Of a stretch of DNA of 58,408 nt, positions 1,553-10,386 are shown piece after piece. The number at the start of each line of letters is the position of its first letter. Within the stretch, counting starts at the first letter, position 1. A program made the position numbers and the translations under genes. Source of the stretch: Paramecium tetraurelia. Taxonomy: Eukaryota. The DNA is taken from contig CT868080.1 of the NCBI GenBank assembly GCA_000165425.1, forward strand, positions 1-58,408, read 5' to 3'. The notes below the pieces were generated by a model that did no database searches, was not told where the DNA came from, and was given only the letters and a program-made list of their open reading frames with translations.

Positions 1553-3296
1553 AGATTAATTGAATTTGATAAATCATACAATTTTATATAATTATTATTA
1601 TTATTATGAAGATCATCATTAAAAATTTCTAATATGTAATTGAATTAAACGCTCTTCAATAACAGTTTCGATTAAAACAGCAAAATATTTTGCAATATTC
1701 TGTCAAAATATAAATAATCAAAGATTTAATTAAAAAGAATTTGGATCTACATTATTAACGATCTTTAATGTTAGTATTTCAATCAAAGTTAATTATTAAA
1801 TTTCTGTATTTTTTTAATACTTTGGCATTTTGATATCTATGCTTATGATTTTGAGATTTCATCATTTCAACTTTGAGTTCCTGTATATGTATAAGAGTTT
1901 TCTTTCAAATTTCTTAATTTCAGTTTTCAGAAATCTGAGAGTGAATTAATAAAGAGTTGTTGAGTTGGTTGTAGTTTTTCTTACCAATTTTGTCGAATAT
2001 TTTATCAAATTAACTAAGATGGTTCTTAAGGTCAAATGAGTTAATACGATATTTTTTATTTAAGAATGATCTTTACAATGATTTTGGGGTGATGAGGGGG
2101 TTATACAAAGAAAACGGATTGCTATTTTTAATATGAATTACGCCATATGCTTTTAACAATTTCAAATGAAAATAGTTAATATACGAAAGGACATTAATCA
2201 AATTATTTGAAAAAATATTGATTAAATTTTAATGCACTATTTTATTCATTTTTAAACGAATTTTTTGGTTTCTTTGTATTTTGAAAGAGATTTAATACTT
2301 TAGAATTCATGGGAATATTTAGATGTAGAATAAGATGATGTGGTTATCTCCCTAATCATTATGTCTGATATTTGATCAGCATAAGATTATTTTTTCTTAC
2401 AATTCGCTAATCCAAATTGAGATCTTCAATTTTCATTTGATTCTTGTTATTTTATTAAAAGCATAATATTTTAAGATGGATAACAAAAATTATTCATTCT
2501 GTATTAATGATACTGCCTTAAGCTGAAGATTGATAAATTTGGAAAAGTAAATTAGGAAAACACAAGAAAATGTATAAAATTGAATGATAATAAGAAGTTT
2601 ACGAAAAACAGAGATATTAAATCATTAAATCAGATAGTGAGTAGGAATTAATTATCATGTTGCAAAATAGAAATAGAATAAGCTTTAATCATTATTTTTA
2701 TTTATTATTTATTTGGATAATATGGGGCTGTTATAAAAATCTGATTTTATCTCAAAAGATTTAGGAGAAAAGAAGGCAGCTACAAATTTAATTAAACTTA
2801 AATATAGATATCAATCTTATCAGAAATCCTTTAATTATTAGCAAGTTGAAAATATAGATTTACTCTTTTGGTTCCTTAAATTTGTTTAAAAAGCTCATGT
2901 ATTGATCTAGATAGATTTAGGGAGGCATTTATGATTTATTCTTGGGATTTTTTAAATATATTCCACAGTGTTGTTTATTGGATTCAGTTAGGAGTATATA
3001 ATTATAACCATTTCTTAGCTACACTTAATAGTTTCGCGCCCTATCTCGTTGGTGAATATCACTGTTATCATAGGGCAGTATAATATGTTTTAACTTATAA
3101 TGTTTGCATTAATACAAATTTTACAAAATAAACTAATAAAATAAATAACATAGGAAATTGAAAAAATTATTAACTACAACTTAATAAAGAAATTTCTTTA
3201 TCAGACAACTAAAATAGAAAGGAAATAAAAGAATTAGAACAATGAAAAATAATTAATGCTTAATTAAATAGAATACAAAATTAAAATATTTCATCG

Positions 3297-5265
3297 ATGG
3301 TGTCATAATTGGCATGTCTCAAAGAACCTTCTCCTGAGCCTAACCCGATACCTGAGGGTCTGAGTTAGGTTTAGAGTAGACTTGGTGATGTTATAGAGAG
3401 CGATGGAAAAAAGGAGGGGAGAAAGAAAGTGAGGTATGAGCTTCTCCCAAACAACCCGGTTGGGCCTAGAAGTTCAGAGGAGGATGTTGAATTGTGTTAT
3501 AGCATATCTAAACTACTAATAAGATTTTCATTGATGAACTAACTGAAAATAAAACTAATCACTGAAATTATTTCACCAGATAGAAAAAATCAGAATTGTT
3601 TCCGCATATTAAAAAATGTATTTTTAAGGGAAGAGAAAATTCAAGACGCTATTAATTATCATTAACAAATAACATAAGTGGTTTAAACTGTAGAATTTTA
3701 GGAGAAAAGAATTTAGAAAGATGAAGCTTTACAATAATAAATTGTTACATATTAATCATATAATAGCAAGTTAGAGGAAATTTTATAGGCTTAAAATAGA
3801 CTCAAAACTCATATTGAAGAGGCAAATAAAAGTATTTAATAAACAGATAAGCAATTTTTGGATAAACATCAGTCTTAAATTCAAGAATTAAATGATAAAT
3901 TAAATGATTACTAGGAAAAATATCAGTATTTCTCAACAAATTAAAAATATTCAATTTAAATCACTTAAGTAATTAATCAGATAGGACAAGCATTTTGTTA
4001 TTTAAATAATTTAAAATAATTAATATCTTAAAGGACATTGCCAGCTTATTAACAATACACTCAAATATATTCAGAGATATAACAATCTTTAAAGAGCTTT
4101 GAAAAATAACATAGTTAATTGCATTAAAAAATTTACAACGATGAACAAATTTAGTTAAAAAACCATGAAAGAATTAAAACATTAGAGATGACAAAAAATT
4201 AATTGGACTAATTTAATTAATAAATGAATCAATTTAAAGAGTAAGTGAAAAATCTAATAAAAAATGAATATTGCAATAATGAAACAACTAGAAATTTAAT
4301 AAATAATAAGCTAAAAAATATGGATTAAAATATAAAGGAATAAAATGAACAGTTCGATAAGTTCACCTAATTTAATTAAGAAGATAAATGTGAAAATATA
4401 GATGAATAAATAAAATAATTGGAAGAATTTTAGGGAAAATTAAAGGAACTCAAAGGTAAAGAAATATAAAGATAAACTAATTAGAGCTAATAATTAAAAA
4501 ATAAAGAAATTCTTACTTTAAATAATCAATTATGAAATAGGTTTGGAGAATATATGTCGACCCTATAATCAATTTAATTTAAATTTCAAAGTATAGAATT
4601 TTATTAGTAATTGAATCAATAAAAGAAAAATCCCAGAAAAGAATTAAAAATGAATCAAGCGTTTTGGATTGATATGAAAAAGACTTCAAATACAAAATGC
4701 ACTGTTATTTGAGTAAATGTAAAAATCGATTTTAGCAAAAAAAGGGCAATAATAAGAATTAATTTACTAGTTGTTCAAAAAATTGCAGTAAATCAATCTT
4801 TTTAAAGGAAAAAAGTGATTAGAAATAGATAAGAGAGTATTTCAAAATATTCAGAAAGTAATTTCTACGAAATGGATGATAACTTAATTAAGAATTTTAA
4901 AAAATAAAATTCCAAAGAAGAAATGTTATCTATTGAAATAAATTCCATAATTAAAAAATCACCCAATTAAGAATTATTCATTAAAAATTCAATGAATTCT
5001 GAGAGCATATTAACAAGTACTTAATTTATATTGATTAATAAATGAACAAATTCCATAATTTGATGAAATTTCAGAATTCAACAAAGTGTATAATAATAAA
5101 ATGTAAAATTATATGAGAAAATATAAGCTTTAATTACCTATATTAAATAATATCACTTAACAAGGTATTATGAAAGAATTAAAGAAAATGCAAATTAATA
5201 GAAGAAAAAACAATAGAATAGCAAAGAAAGGATTAAGAAGAAAATGCAAAAAAAGAGACAGAAGT
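3297..5265 (+). pseudogene. Decayed, kinase-less paralog of the kinase/coiled-coil family, copy B
   Basis: Frame from ATG 3297 joins family coiled-coil sequence (EKIQDAINYHQQITQVVQTVEFQE...); frameshifts and TGA around 4960-5045; ~37-nt deletion near 5230 relative to copy A; homology stops near 5265. Confidence 0.75.
4058..4466 (+). repeat. Perfect direct repeat, copy 2 (identical to 1-409)
   Basis: Direct sequence comparison. Confidence 0.9.
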
Positions 5266-6345: not shown

Positions 6346-8657
6346 TCATCTTTTCTTTAGGTATTTCATTTGCAGTTTTTTAACTTCTTCATCTGAATCG
6401 GAATCCTCATAGTCTTTTAAATTAAATTTAATCTTAGGCATAGCTTTAGTCCCAGCACTCTATTCTAATTGATTATTGGACATCATATTCTCTCTAAGGT
6501 CATTAAATTAAATCATACTTGTTATATGATTTCTGTATAGATGAAATTAAAATTGATTATTTATTTGTTGAGGATTGCTAATACTATTAGGATTTCTTTT
6601 GGGATTATTATAATAATTGTAACTATTGTTATTACTATAAGAATTAGTTCTATTGTTACAATTATTGTTGTTATTATTATTGTTATAATTATTAAGTAAA
6701 TTAATCAATTCTAACATATTTATTTGGACTTTCTTATTAAAATGTATTATTGGTCAAATAGTTAAATTAAGAAACATCATTTTGTTGATTGAATGTTGGG
6801 GATTGAATCTATAAAAAGGTATTTGTTTCTAATTTTGAATTCTATAGAGAAAAAGGAGATAAAGATTAAGAATGATTTTAATGATTTTCATGTTGAGTAT
6901 TTCCATTGATATCCTTAAATCATGGCTTAGTTTCTTTTAATTTATCTCTTAATGTCACTATCTTTCATAGATATAATTAAATCGCCTAAAGATTGTTTTT
7001 TATTAGTTGAAATTTTGAATTGATGAGAAGTATCAGAGTTATTTGAATTATTTTATGAGATTAATTTATTAATAGAATTCCTAGTTGAATTTTACATCGA
7101 TTCTATCTTGTCACATAATATTTATTAAGCTATCTCTTCTATTTCTTATTCTTTTTTTTTAGATTGAGTTTTCAATTTCAATTATTCACTTAAGAAATCT
7201 ATCTTCTATACTGGCAAACCAATTCTTTTATTTGATGGATGAAATGTCTATTCATTTCTCGGAGGACTCATGGGTTATTGCACATTTGGTTATTGCATCT
7301 AAATAATACTTTAATCATACTTAATGAAGTAGAGCTCTTTATAAATCTATAATTTGTGTTTGCATTAATTTTAACTATTCTGATTACATGATAACTAATT
7401 TTTCTGTTAAATGCTAATTTTAAGGGAAATTTGCAGATTAATAACTTTAATTGGAGTCTAAAGGTTAAGGGACTGGTGGCTGTTTAACTGTGCTTTCCTA
7501 TTAAAATGATTATTCAATAGTTTGAATAGGTTCTGCAGATCGAATTTCCTGTTTATTAATATTTTAAGTCTTATTTGGATTCTGATTGGTATTGCAGATA
7601 GGATTATATAAATCTGCCATTTTTTCAATTTATTTAAATGGTTAAGCAGATGCTAGATCAATTTAATGATGATCTAGATTAAGTATTCTCTCTTAAGATC
7701 TTACAATTTTATATTGAGGGTCTTCTTGAATGCTAACTTCAAAGAACTATGGAGATTGATTCTTTTGGAATTGAATGAATAAAAATTAATCATATTAATC
7801 TTTACAAATTCTTCGGGTGATGTATGGACTACAAATATATTCTGTTAACATTGTCCATATGTATTATCTATTATTTAATGGTTCATCATATGGATCATTT
7901 GAATATAACCAAGTACCTATTAATGGCAATTAAAAGATAAGAGGATCTTGAATCATCAAAGGAAAGATTCGGTTAGATTGATCAAGAGAGAGAAATCCAA
8001 ATTTGTATTGAACCTTTTCTTTCTTTTAACTTGATCTCGATTTTGTAATCATTTTAGTTAGTGGAGTTTCTACAAATTTGTTAGTGTGTCTTATTTCTTA
8101 TAATCTAAATTTGACAGATGGATAATGCAAAAAAGTAGTTATTTGATTACATTTTTAAAAGTACAAAGCAAATCTAAATAAATTCAAATAGAGCAGATCA
8201 ATATTAATTGTATTATATGAGCAGGCTTTTTCATTAATAAATTGAGCAAGGGAGTCAGCATTCCAATTCGAATTAGCAACTGCAAAGTTTAATAAGATGG
8301 GATACATGTTATCGTTTTCCAATTTCCTAATTAATAATGAATGTTTCTTTACTCTTTATAAGTTTCTTCTATGTCATAAGAAATAATATCAATTGAGATT
8401 GTATTATCAAATTCAAAAGAGTTCGTTAACCCATAGGCTTGTTTGAATTGCTGATGATACTTAATTTTATGTTGCAGTTTATCATTAACAAAGATGGATG
8501 GTAAGAATTCTTCACTCTTCAATTCGATTTGAATGGATTTCAATTGATACTTGGTGATGAAATTATAGAATGAGGGTTGATAGGGAATGAAAGTAAAGAG
8601 TTGATTAAAGCTTTTGACATCTTATTCTAAATATTCAACAAGGTCTTAGGTTTGCAT
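6346..8657 (-). CDS. STIL/Ana2/SAS-5-like basal-body protein (STIL_N domain, central coiled coil, STAN-like C-terminus); apparent +1 frameshift at ~6920-6891
   Basis: ATG 8657; introns 8352-8327, 7320-7299, 6518-6494; motifs VETPLTKMI..YKFGFLSLDQSNRIFPLMIQDPLIFQLPLIGTWLYS..IWTMLTEYI..SPQFFEV, EKLVIMQSEQLKLMQTQIIDLQRAL, MPKIKFNLKDYEDSDSDEEVKKLQMKYL; final TGA 6346-6348. Confidence 0.75.
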
Positions 8658-8736: not shown

Positions 8737-10386
8737 ATGCAAGTACTATATCAAATGAATTGTGTAAGGAAACACATTTTGAAAAGCAAAACATATTATT
8801 TGTAAGTCCTTGAAGATTCAATGATTTTGAGTGAAGTAAGTCTACTGAATATATAATATAGCATAAAAACATGTTGAATCCCAAGTATATAATCCAATTT
8901 AATTTTGAAACAAGAGTAATGTGGAAGGTTTCAGAATAAGATGAATTATGTTCATTTGGAATCTACTATGTGAATCGAATTAAATGGTTCGACTCTGATC
9001 ATAATTCTCTCAATCTCTTGAAAATTCACCTGTCTCCTAAAGTCTTTTTTGGAAATATTTCTATATTTTACGATTCTGGTTCCATTATTGGATCAGGAGC
9101 ATCATCAAAAGTGAAATATAAAAATTTAAATTAGGTTTGTCTGGTTAAAGTAAAGAAGAGTATTCTTGAATATGCAGCCAAATGCATTTCGAAAAAGTAT
9201 CTCTTACAAAAAAAGTCAAATGACCGCATGGTATAAATTTTCTTATTTATTATTAGAATAGATTATAATAAGAAATTTAAATCTTACAGAAGATTGATCA
9301 TCCATATTTCGTAAAGCTACATGAGATCTACCAAGGAGAGAACTCTTACTATTTGGTGACGGATTACTTGTCAGGGGATACACTTTATAATTACATTAAA
9401 ACATTTCCAGACGATTAGATACCATCTCATTAGATCAGGGAAGCTATCAAAGTTTGCTTATATTTCTATTTTAGATTATATTGACAGCATTAAAATATTT
9501 GGAAATTAACAATATTATCCATAGAGATATCAAATTAGAAAATATCTTATTATAAAAATAAAATGATATTACTTCATTAAAGATAATTGATTTTGGCTTG
9601 GCAATTTATGCATAACCTTAATAGAAAATTAGTATTTGTGGCACTCCTGGATACATTGCCCCTGAAATACTCAAAAATTCCAACGCAGATGAATATTTTA
9701 CTCATAAATGTGACATTTTCAGCGCAGGAGTCATCTTTTATAAATTGTAAGATTAATCATAACCATAATCCTAGATTGACAAAGAAAACATTGTTTCGAG
9801 CTCAAAACACAATGGAAATTATGGAACAGAATAAATTATGTTTAGTCAATTATTAAGATATTGAATATAAGTTATAAAAGGAGGCAGTTAGTTTGTTAAA
9901 ATCAATGTTGGATCCGAATCCTAGAACTAGATATTCAGCAGCATAATGTCTTGAACATCCTTACTTTAGTTGTAAACTTGAGAATATTAATATTTTATAA
10001 GAGATCTTAGATAAAGCTACAGGATTTTCTGGTCTCTCATAAATTAGTATAATATATTATTATCTTTTATAGAAGAATAAAAGGATACTCATTCAATTGG
10101 AATAGAGTCTCAAGCTGCATAAGTTAAAAGATGCAATCCTACATCCTATAAGATAAGAACAGAATAAAGAAAAAGAACTAAAAGCCCTAGAAAATATGCG
10201 GAATTTCAATTTTATTGTCCGTCCTTTTGTTAAATGAACTCATTCGAAAGTTTAAGTAGCAAAGGATCTTCTTCCTATTCTAATAAAGTTTCAAGGATTG
10301 AAAATTTAATTAATGATAAATTAGATTCGGTGATTGAAGAAGATGATAAATTTCAATAAAATATTAAGTAAGTATGTTCAAATTGA
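8737..10386 (+). CDS. Ser/Thr protein kinase (CAMK-like) with N-terminal extension; several tiny introns
   Basis: IGSGASSK, YAAK, HRDIKLEN, IIDFGLA, CGTPGYIAPE, CDIFSAG; TGA 10384-10386. Confidence 0.9.

Follow-up and report, generated by a model that had tools for sequence, protein, structure and literature searches.

A probable STIL ortholog in Paramecium tetraurelia and the one-base surplus that shortens its deposited gene model

STIL belongs to a set of about five core proteins that initiate centriole duplication. The current picture of its control, in which PLK4 phosphorylates the STAN motif, derives from animals. The initial annotation of a 58,408-nucleotide stretch of P. tetraurelia macronuclear scaffold (contig CT868080.1, referred to here as the window) had described a gene on the minus strand as a STIL/Ana2/SAS-5-like protein with three STIL hallmark regions in the expected order. 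This raises the question of whether the gene, termed PtSTIL below, is a ciliate STIL, and how much of the protein is captured by the deposited gene model.

PtSTIL, at 6346..8657 on the minus strand, encodes a STIL-family protein. These limits, as first annotated, were correct, and a single product is obtained from them once three introns are spliced and base 6913 is dropped, giving a coding sequence of 2238 nt and a protein of 745 aa. The introns are all of the GTA…TAG type and translation was performed using the ciliate code (table 6), under which all of the peptide strings quoted in the annotation were found on the minus strand. The gene was divided into the following parts:

6346..8657, minus strand: whole PtSTIL gene, from ATG 8657-8655 to TGA 6348-6346
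8353..8657, minus strand: exon 1, residues 1-101 and two bases of codon 102, start of the STIL N-terminal domain
8327..8352, minus strand: intron 1, 26 nt, GTAAAG…TAG, removal of which yields deposited protein P0007
7321..8326, minus strand: exon 2, STIL_N core, proline motif and coiled coil
7299..7320, minus strand: intron 2, 22 nt, GTATGA…TAG, removal of which yields deposited protein P0007
6519..7298, minus strand: exon 3, charged and then Q/N-rich
6913..6913, minus strand: surplus base, G of GG at 6914-6913, creating a premature TGA at 6890-6888 in the deposited model
6494..6518, minus strand: intron 3, 25 nt, GTATGA…TAG, predicted in this analysis and not in the deposited model
6346..6493, minus strand: exon 4 including the stop codon; RNA reads of runs X21 and X23 cover 6374-6547

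Splicing of intron 3 connects the open frame with a conserved C-terminal motif. The corrected protein consists of a folded N-terminal domain, a disordered linker with a proline motif, a short helix, a long low-complexity stretch (residues 601-700, encoded by exon 3, are 46% Q+N) and an acidic PKIxF…SDSDEE…KYL end.

The N-terminal domain was located as follows, its conserved core beginning at about 8007, slightly downstream of the position of ~8100 initially given for this stretch:

7735..8588, minus strand: STIL N-terminal domain, residues 24-299, split by intron 1 (Pfam STIL_N, hhalign, PDB sequence match and Foldseek)
8007-7735, minus strand: conserved core GFLxLDQ…PLxGxW…F(F/Y)EV, residues 209-299 of the corrected protein (YKFGFLSLDQ…PQFFEV)

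HMMER comparison with Pfam STIL_N and AlphaFold comparison with human STIL had been proposed as checks on the STIL-like identity, which the Pfam and fold comparisons bore out. Exon 2 scored 52 bits (E 6.7e-14) and P0007 49.8 bits with Pfam STIL_N (PF15253), for which the cut-off is 27. Alignment of a profile of 18 non-animal sequences to one of 5 animal STILs using hhalign paired Q24-299 with T23-316 at E 2.6e-28 (probability 99.8). A phmmer search of 1.84 billion representatives returned 86 matches at E<=1e-3, one of them a snail protein named STIL (E 9e-7), and 32 of the 33 matches that were scanned exceeded the Pfam STIL_N cut-off. Matches between the Paramecium protein and named animal STILs were reciprocal. 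In the AlphaFold2 model of the N-terminal domain, pLDDT was mostly about 70-95 and the folded domain spanned residues ~24-340. The top three Foldseek results were the Trichoplax adhaerens STIL N-terminal domain chains 5oid_A, 5oi9_A and 5oi9_B (E 1e-15 to 2e-14, target TM 0.59-0.63), followed by the Atg7 N-terminal domain as the next fold in the list at E 1e-6. The Trichoplax domain (PDB 5OI9, 5OID) is the best PDB match in both sequence (5oi9_A, E 1.7e-4, residues 209-302) and fold (351-360 aligned columns), although identity to the Paramecium protein over the fold alignment is only 13-14%. PDB entry 5OID holds this domain in complex with the coiled coil of human CEP85. The N-terminal resemblance to STIL far exceeds chance.

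STIL_N proteins related to PtSTIL were found in Tetrahymena, Pseudomicrothorax, Blepharisma, Stentor and an oomycete. Word-indexed protein searches returned Paramecium proteins only (1, 2 and 3 matches), to which an added profile search contributed nothing further. The top clusters in the protein atlas were STIL families at 0.86-0.88, where the tool treats values below 0.9 as no more than a lead. In a quick tree Paramecium, Tetrahymena and Pseudomicrothorax grouped together at 99 SH-aLRT, with the animals (99) and an oomycete pair (97) as separate groups, a topology that argues for vertical descent of the Paramecium sequence.

A close parallel in another ciliate class is Stentor coeruleus SteCoe_3381 (OMJ93550.1), a 616-aa STIL_N protein in the cluster of P0043 that has the same C-terminal motif and is matched by the Paramecium query at E 1.5e-7, although it falls in another clade of the quick tree. 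Its best BLAST match is STIL_HUMAN, and manual annotation has named it STIL (Sood et al. 2022, PMC9371601). Tetrahymena thermophila XP_001027310.2 groups with Paramecium in the tree, scores 34 bits against Pfam STIL_N and ends in IPTIK…DSDDSDNDE…KRYK; it differs in its length of 1206 aa and in its name, 'rhodanese-like domain protein', which masks the STIL kinship. Its cluster also contains proteins that terminate in a rhodanese-like tail. Entries for P. octaurelia, P. bursaria and Tetrahymena likewise seem to be mis-modelled or mis-named, and such ciliate entries may explain why STIL outside animals has been under-recognized. The core identification is already known, being present in UniRef and Pfam (P0007 bears the UniRef name 'STIL N-terminal domain-containing protein') and, for the Stentor ortholog, in print. 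Given the UniRef name, the ciliate and oomycete homologs and the published Stentor STIL (PMC9371601), the premise that STIL is animal-centred is weaker than the initial annotation had stated.

The remaining hallmark regions lie downstream of the N-terminal domain:

7462..7485, minus strand: proline motif KQPPVPQP, residues 383-390, holding the sole PxxPxP in the protein (residues 385-390)
7330..7404, minus strand: central coiled coil EKLVIMQSEQLKLMQTQIIDLQRAL, residues 410-434 (hhalign; AlphaFold helix 406-438, pLDDT about 93-96)
6355..6438, minus strand: C-terminal STAN-like motif, residues 716-743, PKIKF followed by acidic/serine DSDSDEE and then LQMKYL, ending 3 residues before the C-terminus

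The proline motif that binds the TCP domain of CPAP/SAS-4 has the form PRxxPxP, and in the animal sequences compared it reads P(R/Q)xxP(S/A)PH. KQPPVPQP sits between the N-terminal domain and the coiled coil, in the disordered linker, and P. bursaria has KQPPIPTP at the matching position. An HMM of 5 animal proline motifs found no match in the protein of either P. tetraurelia or P. bursaria, and of the 19 remaining non-animal homologs only P0085 scored above all 100 shuffles. Pfam PRM_STIL (PF26399) was absent from the local Pfam scans of animal STILs. The string that had been annotated as a proline motif is accordingly present, but its proposed CPAP-binding identity is not borne out by the animal-motif HMM, and homology to the CPAP-binding motif is not demonstrable from these sequences.

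The coiled coil was recovered in the second hhalign alignment, in which Q411-430 was placed on T737-756 of newt STIL at E 7e-4 (probability 26%). This newt segment falls within the newt protein's Pfam CC_STIL match at 733-760. CC_STIL on the Paramecium protein was not significant (E 6.2, 7.3 bits, cut-off 22), and the resemblance to the animal STIL coiled coil is suggestive.

STAN was defined as a stretch of ~90 aa that is conserved in both Ana2 and STIL and lies inside the SAS-6-binding region (Stevens 2010, PMC2819680). In PtSTIL the stretch PKIKF…MKYLKKR makes up residues 716-745 (6438-6349, minus strand) and is followed directly by TGA 6348-6346. The PtSTIL tail scored 18.5 bits with an HMM of 14 homologs from outside Paramecium, the highest score among 1400 shuffles being 4.4. 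The motif is kept across ciliates and an oomycete, and in 17 non-animal sequences its distance to the C-terminus is 1-16 residues; by these comparisons its conservation within the non-animal STIL_N family is well beyond chance.

The link from this motif to animal STAN is weak by sequence. In the third hhalign alignment the PtSTIL tail was collinear with animal IPRLNY…AIALKYL, but at E 0.14 and a probability of 0.4%. The pattern common to the two is ΦP(K/R)Φx(Y/F)…S/D/E…ΦxxKYL, and as PtSTIL ends there, only ~30 of the ~90 STAN residues have a counterpart. The HMM of the non-animal motif did not score above shuffles on animal STILs. Between PKIxY and KYL the segment contains 36% D/E in the 17 non-animal proteins as compared to 14% in 4 animal ones. 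A tail of the form …ILD(I/V)x(K/R)L(K/R)Q(L/M)PKL(L/F), which we take to be the TIM motif, ends all 5 of the animal sequences and none of the non-animal sequences shown. As to a KEN box, a KEN tripeptide occurs upstream of the STAN-like motif at residues 697-699; by rough estimate KEN would arise by chance about once per three such proteins. Pfam scans of C-terminal pieces of PtSTIL gave PH_ULP, AAA_6 and Uso1, all sub-threshold and regarded as noise.

Comparison with animal STILs, among them those of Pleurodeles (P0086), Callorhinchus (P0090), Owenia (P0058) and Batillaria (P0048) shows STIL_N aligning end to end and a common order of N-terminal domain, proline-rich stretch, coiled coil with Q..QLk.LQ.QI..L, and ΦP(K/R)Φx(Y/F)…(acidic/Ser)…ΦxxKYL. 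The vertebrate strings quoted in the initial annotation were close to the newt and elephant-shark STIL sequences. The animal proteins differ in being 1166-1362 aa long as opposed to ~745 aa, and in carrying the STAN segment 135-210 residues before the C-terminus as opposed to 3 in Paramecium, which is without the …LPKL(L/F) tail and without a significant match to Pfam CC_STIL or the animal proline motif. Ana2 and SAS-5 are shorter, at ~400 aa, and are not known to carry the large STIL N-terminal domain found in the Paramecium protein. The pair of features that defines the Ana2/SAS-5/STIL group is a short central coiled coil together with the C-terminal STAN region (Stevens 2010, PMC2819680). 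The claim of three hallmark regions in order therefore stands as far as the collinearity of the N-terminal domain, coiled coil and STAN-like motif is concerned, while the animal links of the latter two are weak (E 7e-4 and 0.14).

We consider PtSTIL to be probably the STIL ortholog of P. tetraurelia, with a product of ~745 aa. STIL, known as Ana2 in flies and SAS-5 in worms, is the adaptor that initiates cartwheel assembly at the new centriole or basal body. By analogy with animals, the coiled coil would oligomerize the protein, the STAN-like motif would bind SAS-6 and thereby nucleate or stabilize the cartwheel beside the mother basal body, and the proline motif may tether SAS-4/CPAP.

An alternative is that PtSTIL is a STIL_N-domain protein of shared ancestry that performs some other, non-cartwheel job in ciliates, its short motifs being coincidental or repurposed. 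The N-terminal domain alone is statistically secure against animal sequences, the coiled coil and STAN-like motif are tied to animals only weakly and the proline motif fails the profile test, all of which such a reading would accommodate. A literature search found no paper characterizing a ciliate STIL by localization, interaction or knock-down, which likewise fits it. The top three hhalign alignments of the full-length profiles are, however, the three regions collinear with animal STIL, which counts against a non-cartwheel role, as does conservation of the C-terminal motif over ciliates and an oomycete. In Stentor, moreover, SteCoe_3381 belongs to cluster 2 of the oral-apparatus regeneration module together with SAS6 and peaks as thousands of basal bodies form, an induction that rests on expression data (PMC9371601). 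We therefore regard a different job for the protein as unlikely.

The deposited protein P0007 is 573 aa long and 100% identical to PtSTIL over exons 1-3 up to the premature stop. It ends at TGA 6890-6888 because the surplus G at 6913 shifts the frame. From the reading frames alone, before read evidence was taken into account, the frame switch had been placed within 6919-6888. A GT…AG intron as the cause of the frame change near 6900 was rejected, as the only candidates were GTGAC…AAG of 33 and 45 nt, both of which keep the frame. The DNA contig of run X1 (depth 94.5) does not have the letter at 6913, and P. octaurelia fragment P0009 crosses the equivalent site without interruption. A single surplus base in the reference sequence truncates the deposited model, and the real product is ~745 aa. 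As SAS-6 binding in known systems maps to the STAN region, the truncated model would lose the very part likeliest to bind SAS-6.

RNA was consistent in orientation with the corrected gene. None of the listed data sets that contain the stretch is recorded as RNA, and raw RNA runs were used. Three runs gave 107 stranded reads on PtSTIL (58, 40 and 9), all in the one orientation expected for a minus-strand transcript, and reads on the divergent neighbour gene had the opposite orientation. A Pkinase domain is present in the neighbouring kinase gene. At the low depth of the three RNA runs, no spliced-read joints were listed across the PtSTIL introns; intron 3 and the frame correction are predicted from the contig of the one DNA run, the sister-species fragment and conservation of the motif.

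These observations also bear on the reading that the frameshift is genuine in the sequenced strain, PtSTIL then being a truncated or decaying copy without the STAN-like tail, as in the 573-aa model. The window itself carries the extra base and the stop at 6890-6888, the DNA evidence comes from one run, and the P. octaurelia counterpart is annotated as three fragments, one of which reads the conserved core in another frame. The depth-94.5 contig nevertheless drops the base exactly where the frames need to change, and with the base dropped the entire 2238-nt coding sequence is open as far as the conserved family motif. The last exon has RNA reads on the same strand and no further disruption occurs within the conserved domains. 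A genuine frameshift is therefore highly improbable.

That the STIL similarity is a chance likeness of short, low-complexity strings has a negligible probability: Q/N-rich and proline-rich motifs are easily matched by eye, and the KEN at 697 and PxxPxP are individually weak, but for the N-terminal domain, where E-values run from 1e-13 to 1e-28, the fold matches that of a solved STIL domain and matches to named animal STILs are reciprocal, chance is ruled out by the Pfam, hhalign and Foldseek results.

The practical outcome is a reference gene model that is truncated by a one-base error. The presence of the protein in Paramecium, four other ciliate genera and an oomycete supports the view that STIL arose long before animals, and the initial suggestion of an older centriole module fits this spread of homologs, its operation without PLK4 being a conjecture. 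A further reading, which we offer as speculative and on balance doubtful, is that the STILs of ciliates, oomycetes and many unnamed protists represent an ancestral compact form, in which a permanently acidic STAN core with CK2-type serines (SDSSDDEE) would bind SAS-6 without PLK4. In animals and chytrids, regulation by PLK4 would be a later acquisition, with phosphorylatable serines replacing the built-in charge. If this is true, the STIL/SAS-6/SAS-4 module was already present in the ancestor that SAR and opisthokonts last shared, and basal-body duplication in ciliates is triggered by something else, such as protein level, CK2 or a different kinase. RNAi by feeding is easy in Paramecium. Phenotypes of Paramecium SAS-6, SAS-4 and Bld10 have been described (PMC3069007). 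A STIL in Paramecium makes the question of how SAS-6 is recruited directly testable in an organism where PLK4 is reportedly absent.

PtSTIL, the gene under study, lies in a region of 19–30% G+C, and the reading frames of the window are sensible only if TAA and TAG are read as glutamine. The deposited 573-residue model from a macronuclear scaffold of Paramecium tetraurelia, P0007, was 100% identical to the query, and removal of introns 1 and 2 joined the coding pieces exactly as in that model.

Features of the PtSTIL locus and neighbouring genes
8657 to 6346, minus strand: PtSTIL gene, ATG to TGA, from frames and splicing
8352–8327, minus strand: intron 1, GTA…TAG, 26 nt
7320–7299, minus strand: intron 2, GTA…TAG, 22 nt
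6518–6494, minus strand: intron 3, canonical, 25 nt, predicted
3' of the intron at 6518–6494, minus strand: last exon, an open frame with the PKIKF…KYLKKR tail
8871–10237, plus strand: gene for a Ser/Thr protein kinase, interrupted by small introns; 9325–9861 matches Pfam Pkinase (3.5e-30)
3246–4535, plus strand: 429-codon open frame with a Q/K/E-rich, coiled-coil-looking product

The kinase gene is positioned head-to-head with PtSTIL, about 213 bases upstream of its start, and the product of 3246–4535 had no Pfam match at E≤0.01.

A single base cuts the P0007 model short. It terminates at a TGA at 6890–6888, 3' of which a different frame is open for 132 codons up to intron 3, and the frames alone confine the switch to 6919–6888. 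At 6913, one G of a GG pair in the window is absent from a contig of the public DNA run X1 (depth 94.5). Omission of this base and splicing of the three introns resulted in a 2238-nt coding sequence with a single terminal stop that encodes 745 residues, and the P. octaurelia fragment P0009 crosses the 6913 site uninterrupted in the predicted frame. GT…AG introns were also considered as the source of the switch; none could provide one. Within the model, confidence is lowest for the exact exon structure in the low-complexity stretch at 6550–6720 on the minus strand (residues about 601–700, 46% Q+N with long Q runs), which was skipped as a repeat so that no RNA reads were placed there.

Transcription was evaluated with three stranded RNA runs, which placed 58, 40 and 9 reads on PtSTIL, all with first mates mapping to the plus strand, opposite to the reads of the divergent neighbour. 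Part of these reads fell on the last exon; as the depth was insufficient for splice joints, intron 3 is still a prediction. Single-base differences between RNA and window were seen at 7747, 8477 and 8560, the C>T change at 7747 in 4/4 reads of RNA run X21 and 2/2 of X23, and probably reflect divergence between the reference strain and those used for RNA.

The observation made in the initial annotation holds, its assignment of PtSTIL to the STIL family is strongly supported, and the N-terminal domain of PtSTIL is a STIL domain. Exon 2 scored 52 bits (E 6.7e-14) and P0007 49.8 bits against Pfam STIL_N, for which the cut-off is 27 bits; this cut-off was passed by 32 of the 33 homologs scanned, the exception being P0079 at 17.7 bits. 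A phmmer search of 1.84 billion representatives returned 86 proteins at E≤1e-3, 25 of them at E≤1e-10. The named non-animal matches include Pseudomicrothorax, Tetrahymena, Blepharisma, Stentor and the oomycete Peronosclerospora, and the animal STILs those of a snail, an annelid, a newt, the elephant shark and a lungfish-like record. In profile-profile alignment (hhalign) of 18 non-animal sequences with 5 animal STILs, residues 24–299 were placed onto 23–316 of newt STIL (Pleurodeles, P0086) with a probability of 99.8% and an E of 2.6e-28. Structural comparison agreed. The top PDB sequence match was 5oi9_A, a Trichoplax STIL N-terminal domain (E 1.7e-4), and an AlphaFold2 model from a 44-sequence alignment (mean pLDDT 67.8, N-terminal domain mostly 70–95) returned Trichoplax STIL N-terminal domain chains as its top three fold matches (E 1e-15 to 2e-14, target TM 0.59–0.63), followed by the Atg7 N-terminal domain at about 1e-6 and a TM near 0.2–0.3.

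Three further regions, the coiled coil, the proline motif and the C-terminal motif, were compared with animal STIL. Pfam CC_STIL was not significant on PtSTIL (E 6.2), but the second-best hhalign alignment placed residues 411–430 onto newt 737–756 (E 7e-4, probability 26%), within the newt CC_STIL match at 733–760. Both coiled coils share a Q..QLk.LQ.QI..L signature, and residues 406–438 were modelled as a helix with a pLDDT of about 93–96. CC_STIL was significant only in animal-type sequences, in 5 of the 6 scanned, the remaining one being P0060 (E 0.17).

Many non-animal homologs end with ΦP(K/R)Ix(Y/F) followed by a run of acidic and serine residues and by ΦxxKYL, and among non-animal STILs this ending is a secure family feature. 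An HMM trained on 14 of these homologs, Paramecium excluded, scored the PtSTIL tail (716–743) at 18.5 bits versus a maximum of 4.4 in 1400 shuffled decoys; animal STILs did not score above decoys with it. The animal motif reads IPRLNYMS…ANAIALKYL or LP(H/K)(I/V)NY(L/V)S…AMKYL and lies 135–210 residues short of the C-terminus, whereas non-animal STILs stop at the motif and lack the …LPKL(L/F) tail. Between the anchors D/E made up 36% in 17 non-animal sequences versus 14% in 4 animal STILs and S/T 20% in both, with the pattern match over-extended in one Stentor sequence. The third hhalign alignment, of 715–744 with newt 1030–1067, is weak (E 0.14, probability 0.4%) but collinear with the other two. 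The tail is read as a STAN-like core whose homology to animal STAN is plausible though unproven.

A KEN tripeptide occurs at residues 697–699, 17 residues before this motif, its codons spanning the exon 3/exon 4 junction near 6519 and 6493. Animal STIL contains a KEN degron; a three-residue match of this kind is expected by chance fairly often.

The proline motif is present as a string, KQPPVPQP, which holds the only PxxPxP of PtSTIL and has the counterpart KQPPIPTP in P. bursaria. Its homology to the animal motif is unproven, since an HMM of the latter (P(R/Q)xxP(S/A)PH…VPE(L/V)S) found no match in either Paramecium protein; among 19 other non-animal homologs only P0085 beat all 100 shuffles.

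In a rapid phylogeny computed from 44 rows of the domain core, with SH-aLRT as the only support measure, Paramecium clustered with Tetrahymena and Pseudomicrothorax (99), animals (99) and an oomycete pair (97) formed separate groups, and Stentor and Blepharisma were placed elsewhere than the Paramecium group. The pattern fits vertical inheritance and carries no sign of contamination.

Several related gene models were irregular. The P. octaurelia counterpart, on one 368049-base contig, is deposited as P0012, P0008 and P0009 (133, 240 and 188 residues), with the conserved GFLxLDQ…PLIG core of P0008 in a frame other than that of P. tetraurelia; this reflects either indel errors in the assembly or a decaying copy. 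The annotated C-terminus of P. bursaria P0006 (727 residues) lacks PKIxF…KYL, and because its tail resembles the P. tetraurelia last exon read off-frame, the model appears to have missed a final intron. The Tetrahymena thermophila homolog (P0022, P0095, P0096) is named 'rhodanese-like domain protein'; its 1206-residue form ends in a STAN-like motif and the 483- and 1696-residue cluster members end rhodanese-like, which suggests either a fused gene model or alternative ones that mask the STIL identity.

According to the initial annotation, STIL is usually described as animal-centred, and surveys are commonly cited for an animal-restricted distribution. The STIL identification is not new: UniRef labels P0007 'STIL N-terminal domain-c…', and the Blepharisma and Stentor proteins are likewise named by the STIL_N domain. 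Table 1 of Sood et al. 2022 (PMC9371601) lists Stentor STIL beside SAS6 among genes peaking during oral basal body formation, and supplementary file 2 of that study annotates as STIL SteCoe_3381, a member of the cluster of hit P0043. The Paramecium SAS-4 paper (PMC3069007) mentions SAS-5 in worms only, and a Toxoplasma review states that T. gondii does not encode STIL. In the literature searched, no paper localised or depleted a ciliate STIL.

With the domain architecture, conservation and transcription of PtSTIL established, its working can be modelled on animal STIL/Ana2. The helix would oligomerise the protein, the C-terminal motif would bind SAS-6 and thereby seed the cartwheel beside the mother basal body, and the proline stretch may hold SAS-4. 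Because the tail is acidic and CK2-like, we hypothesise that the charge added by PLK4 in animals could be encoded in the PtSTIL sequence itself. As a finding this is of an ordinary kind, and databases already record it; what remains useful is the corrected PtSTIL gene model and a testable idea on STAN regulation outside animals.
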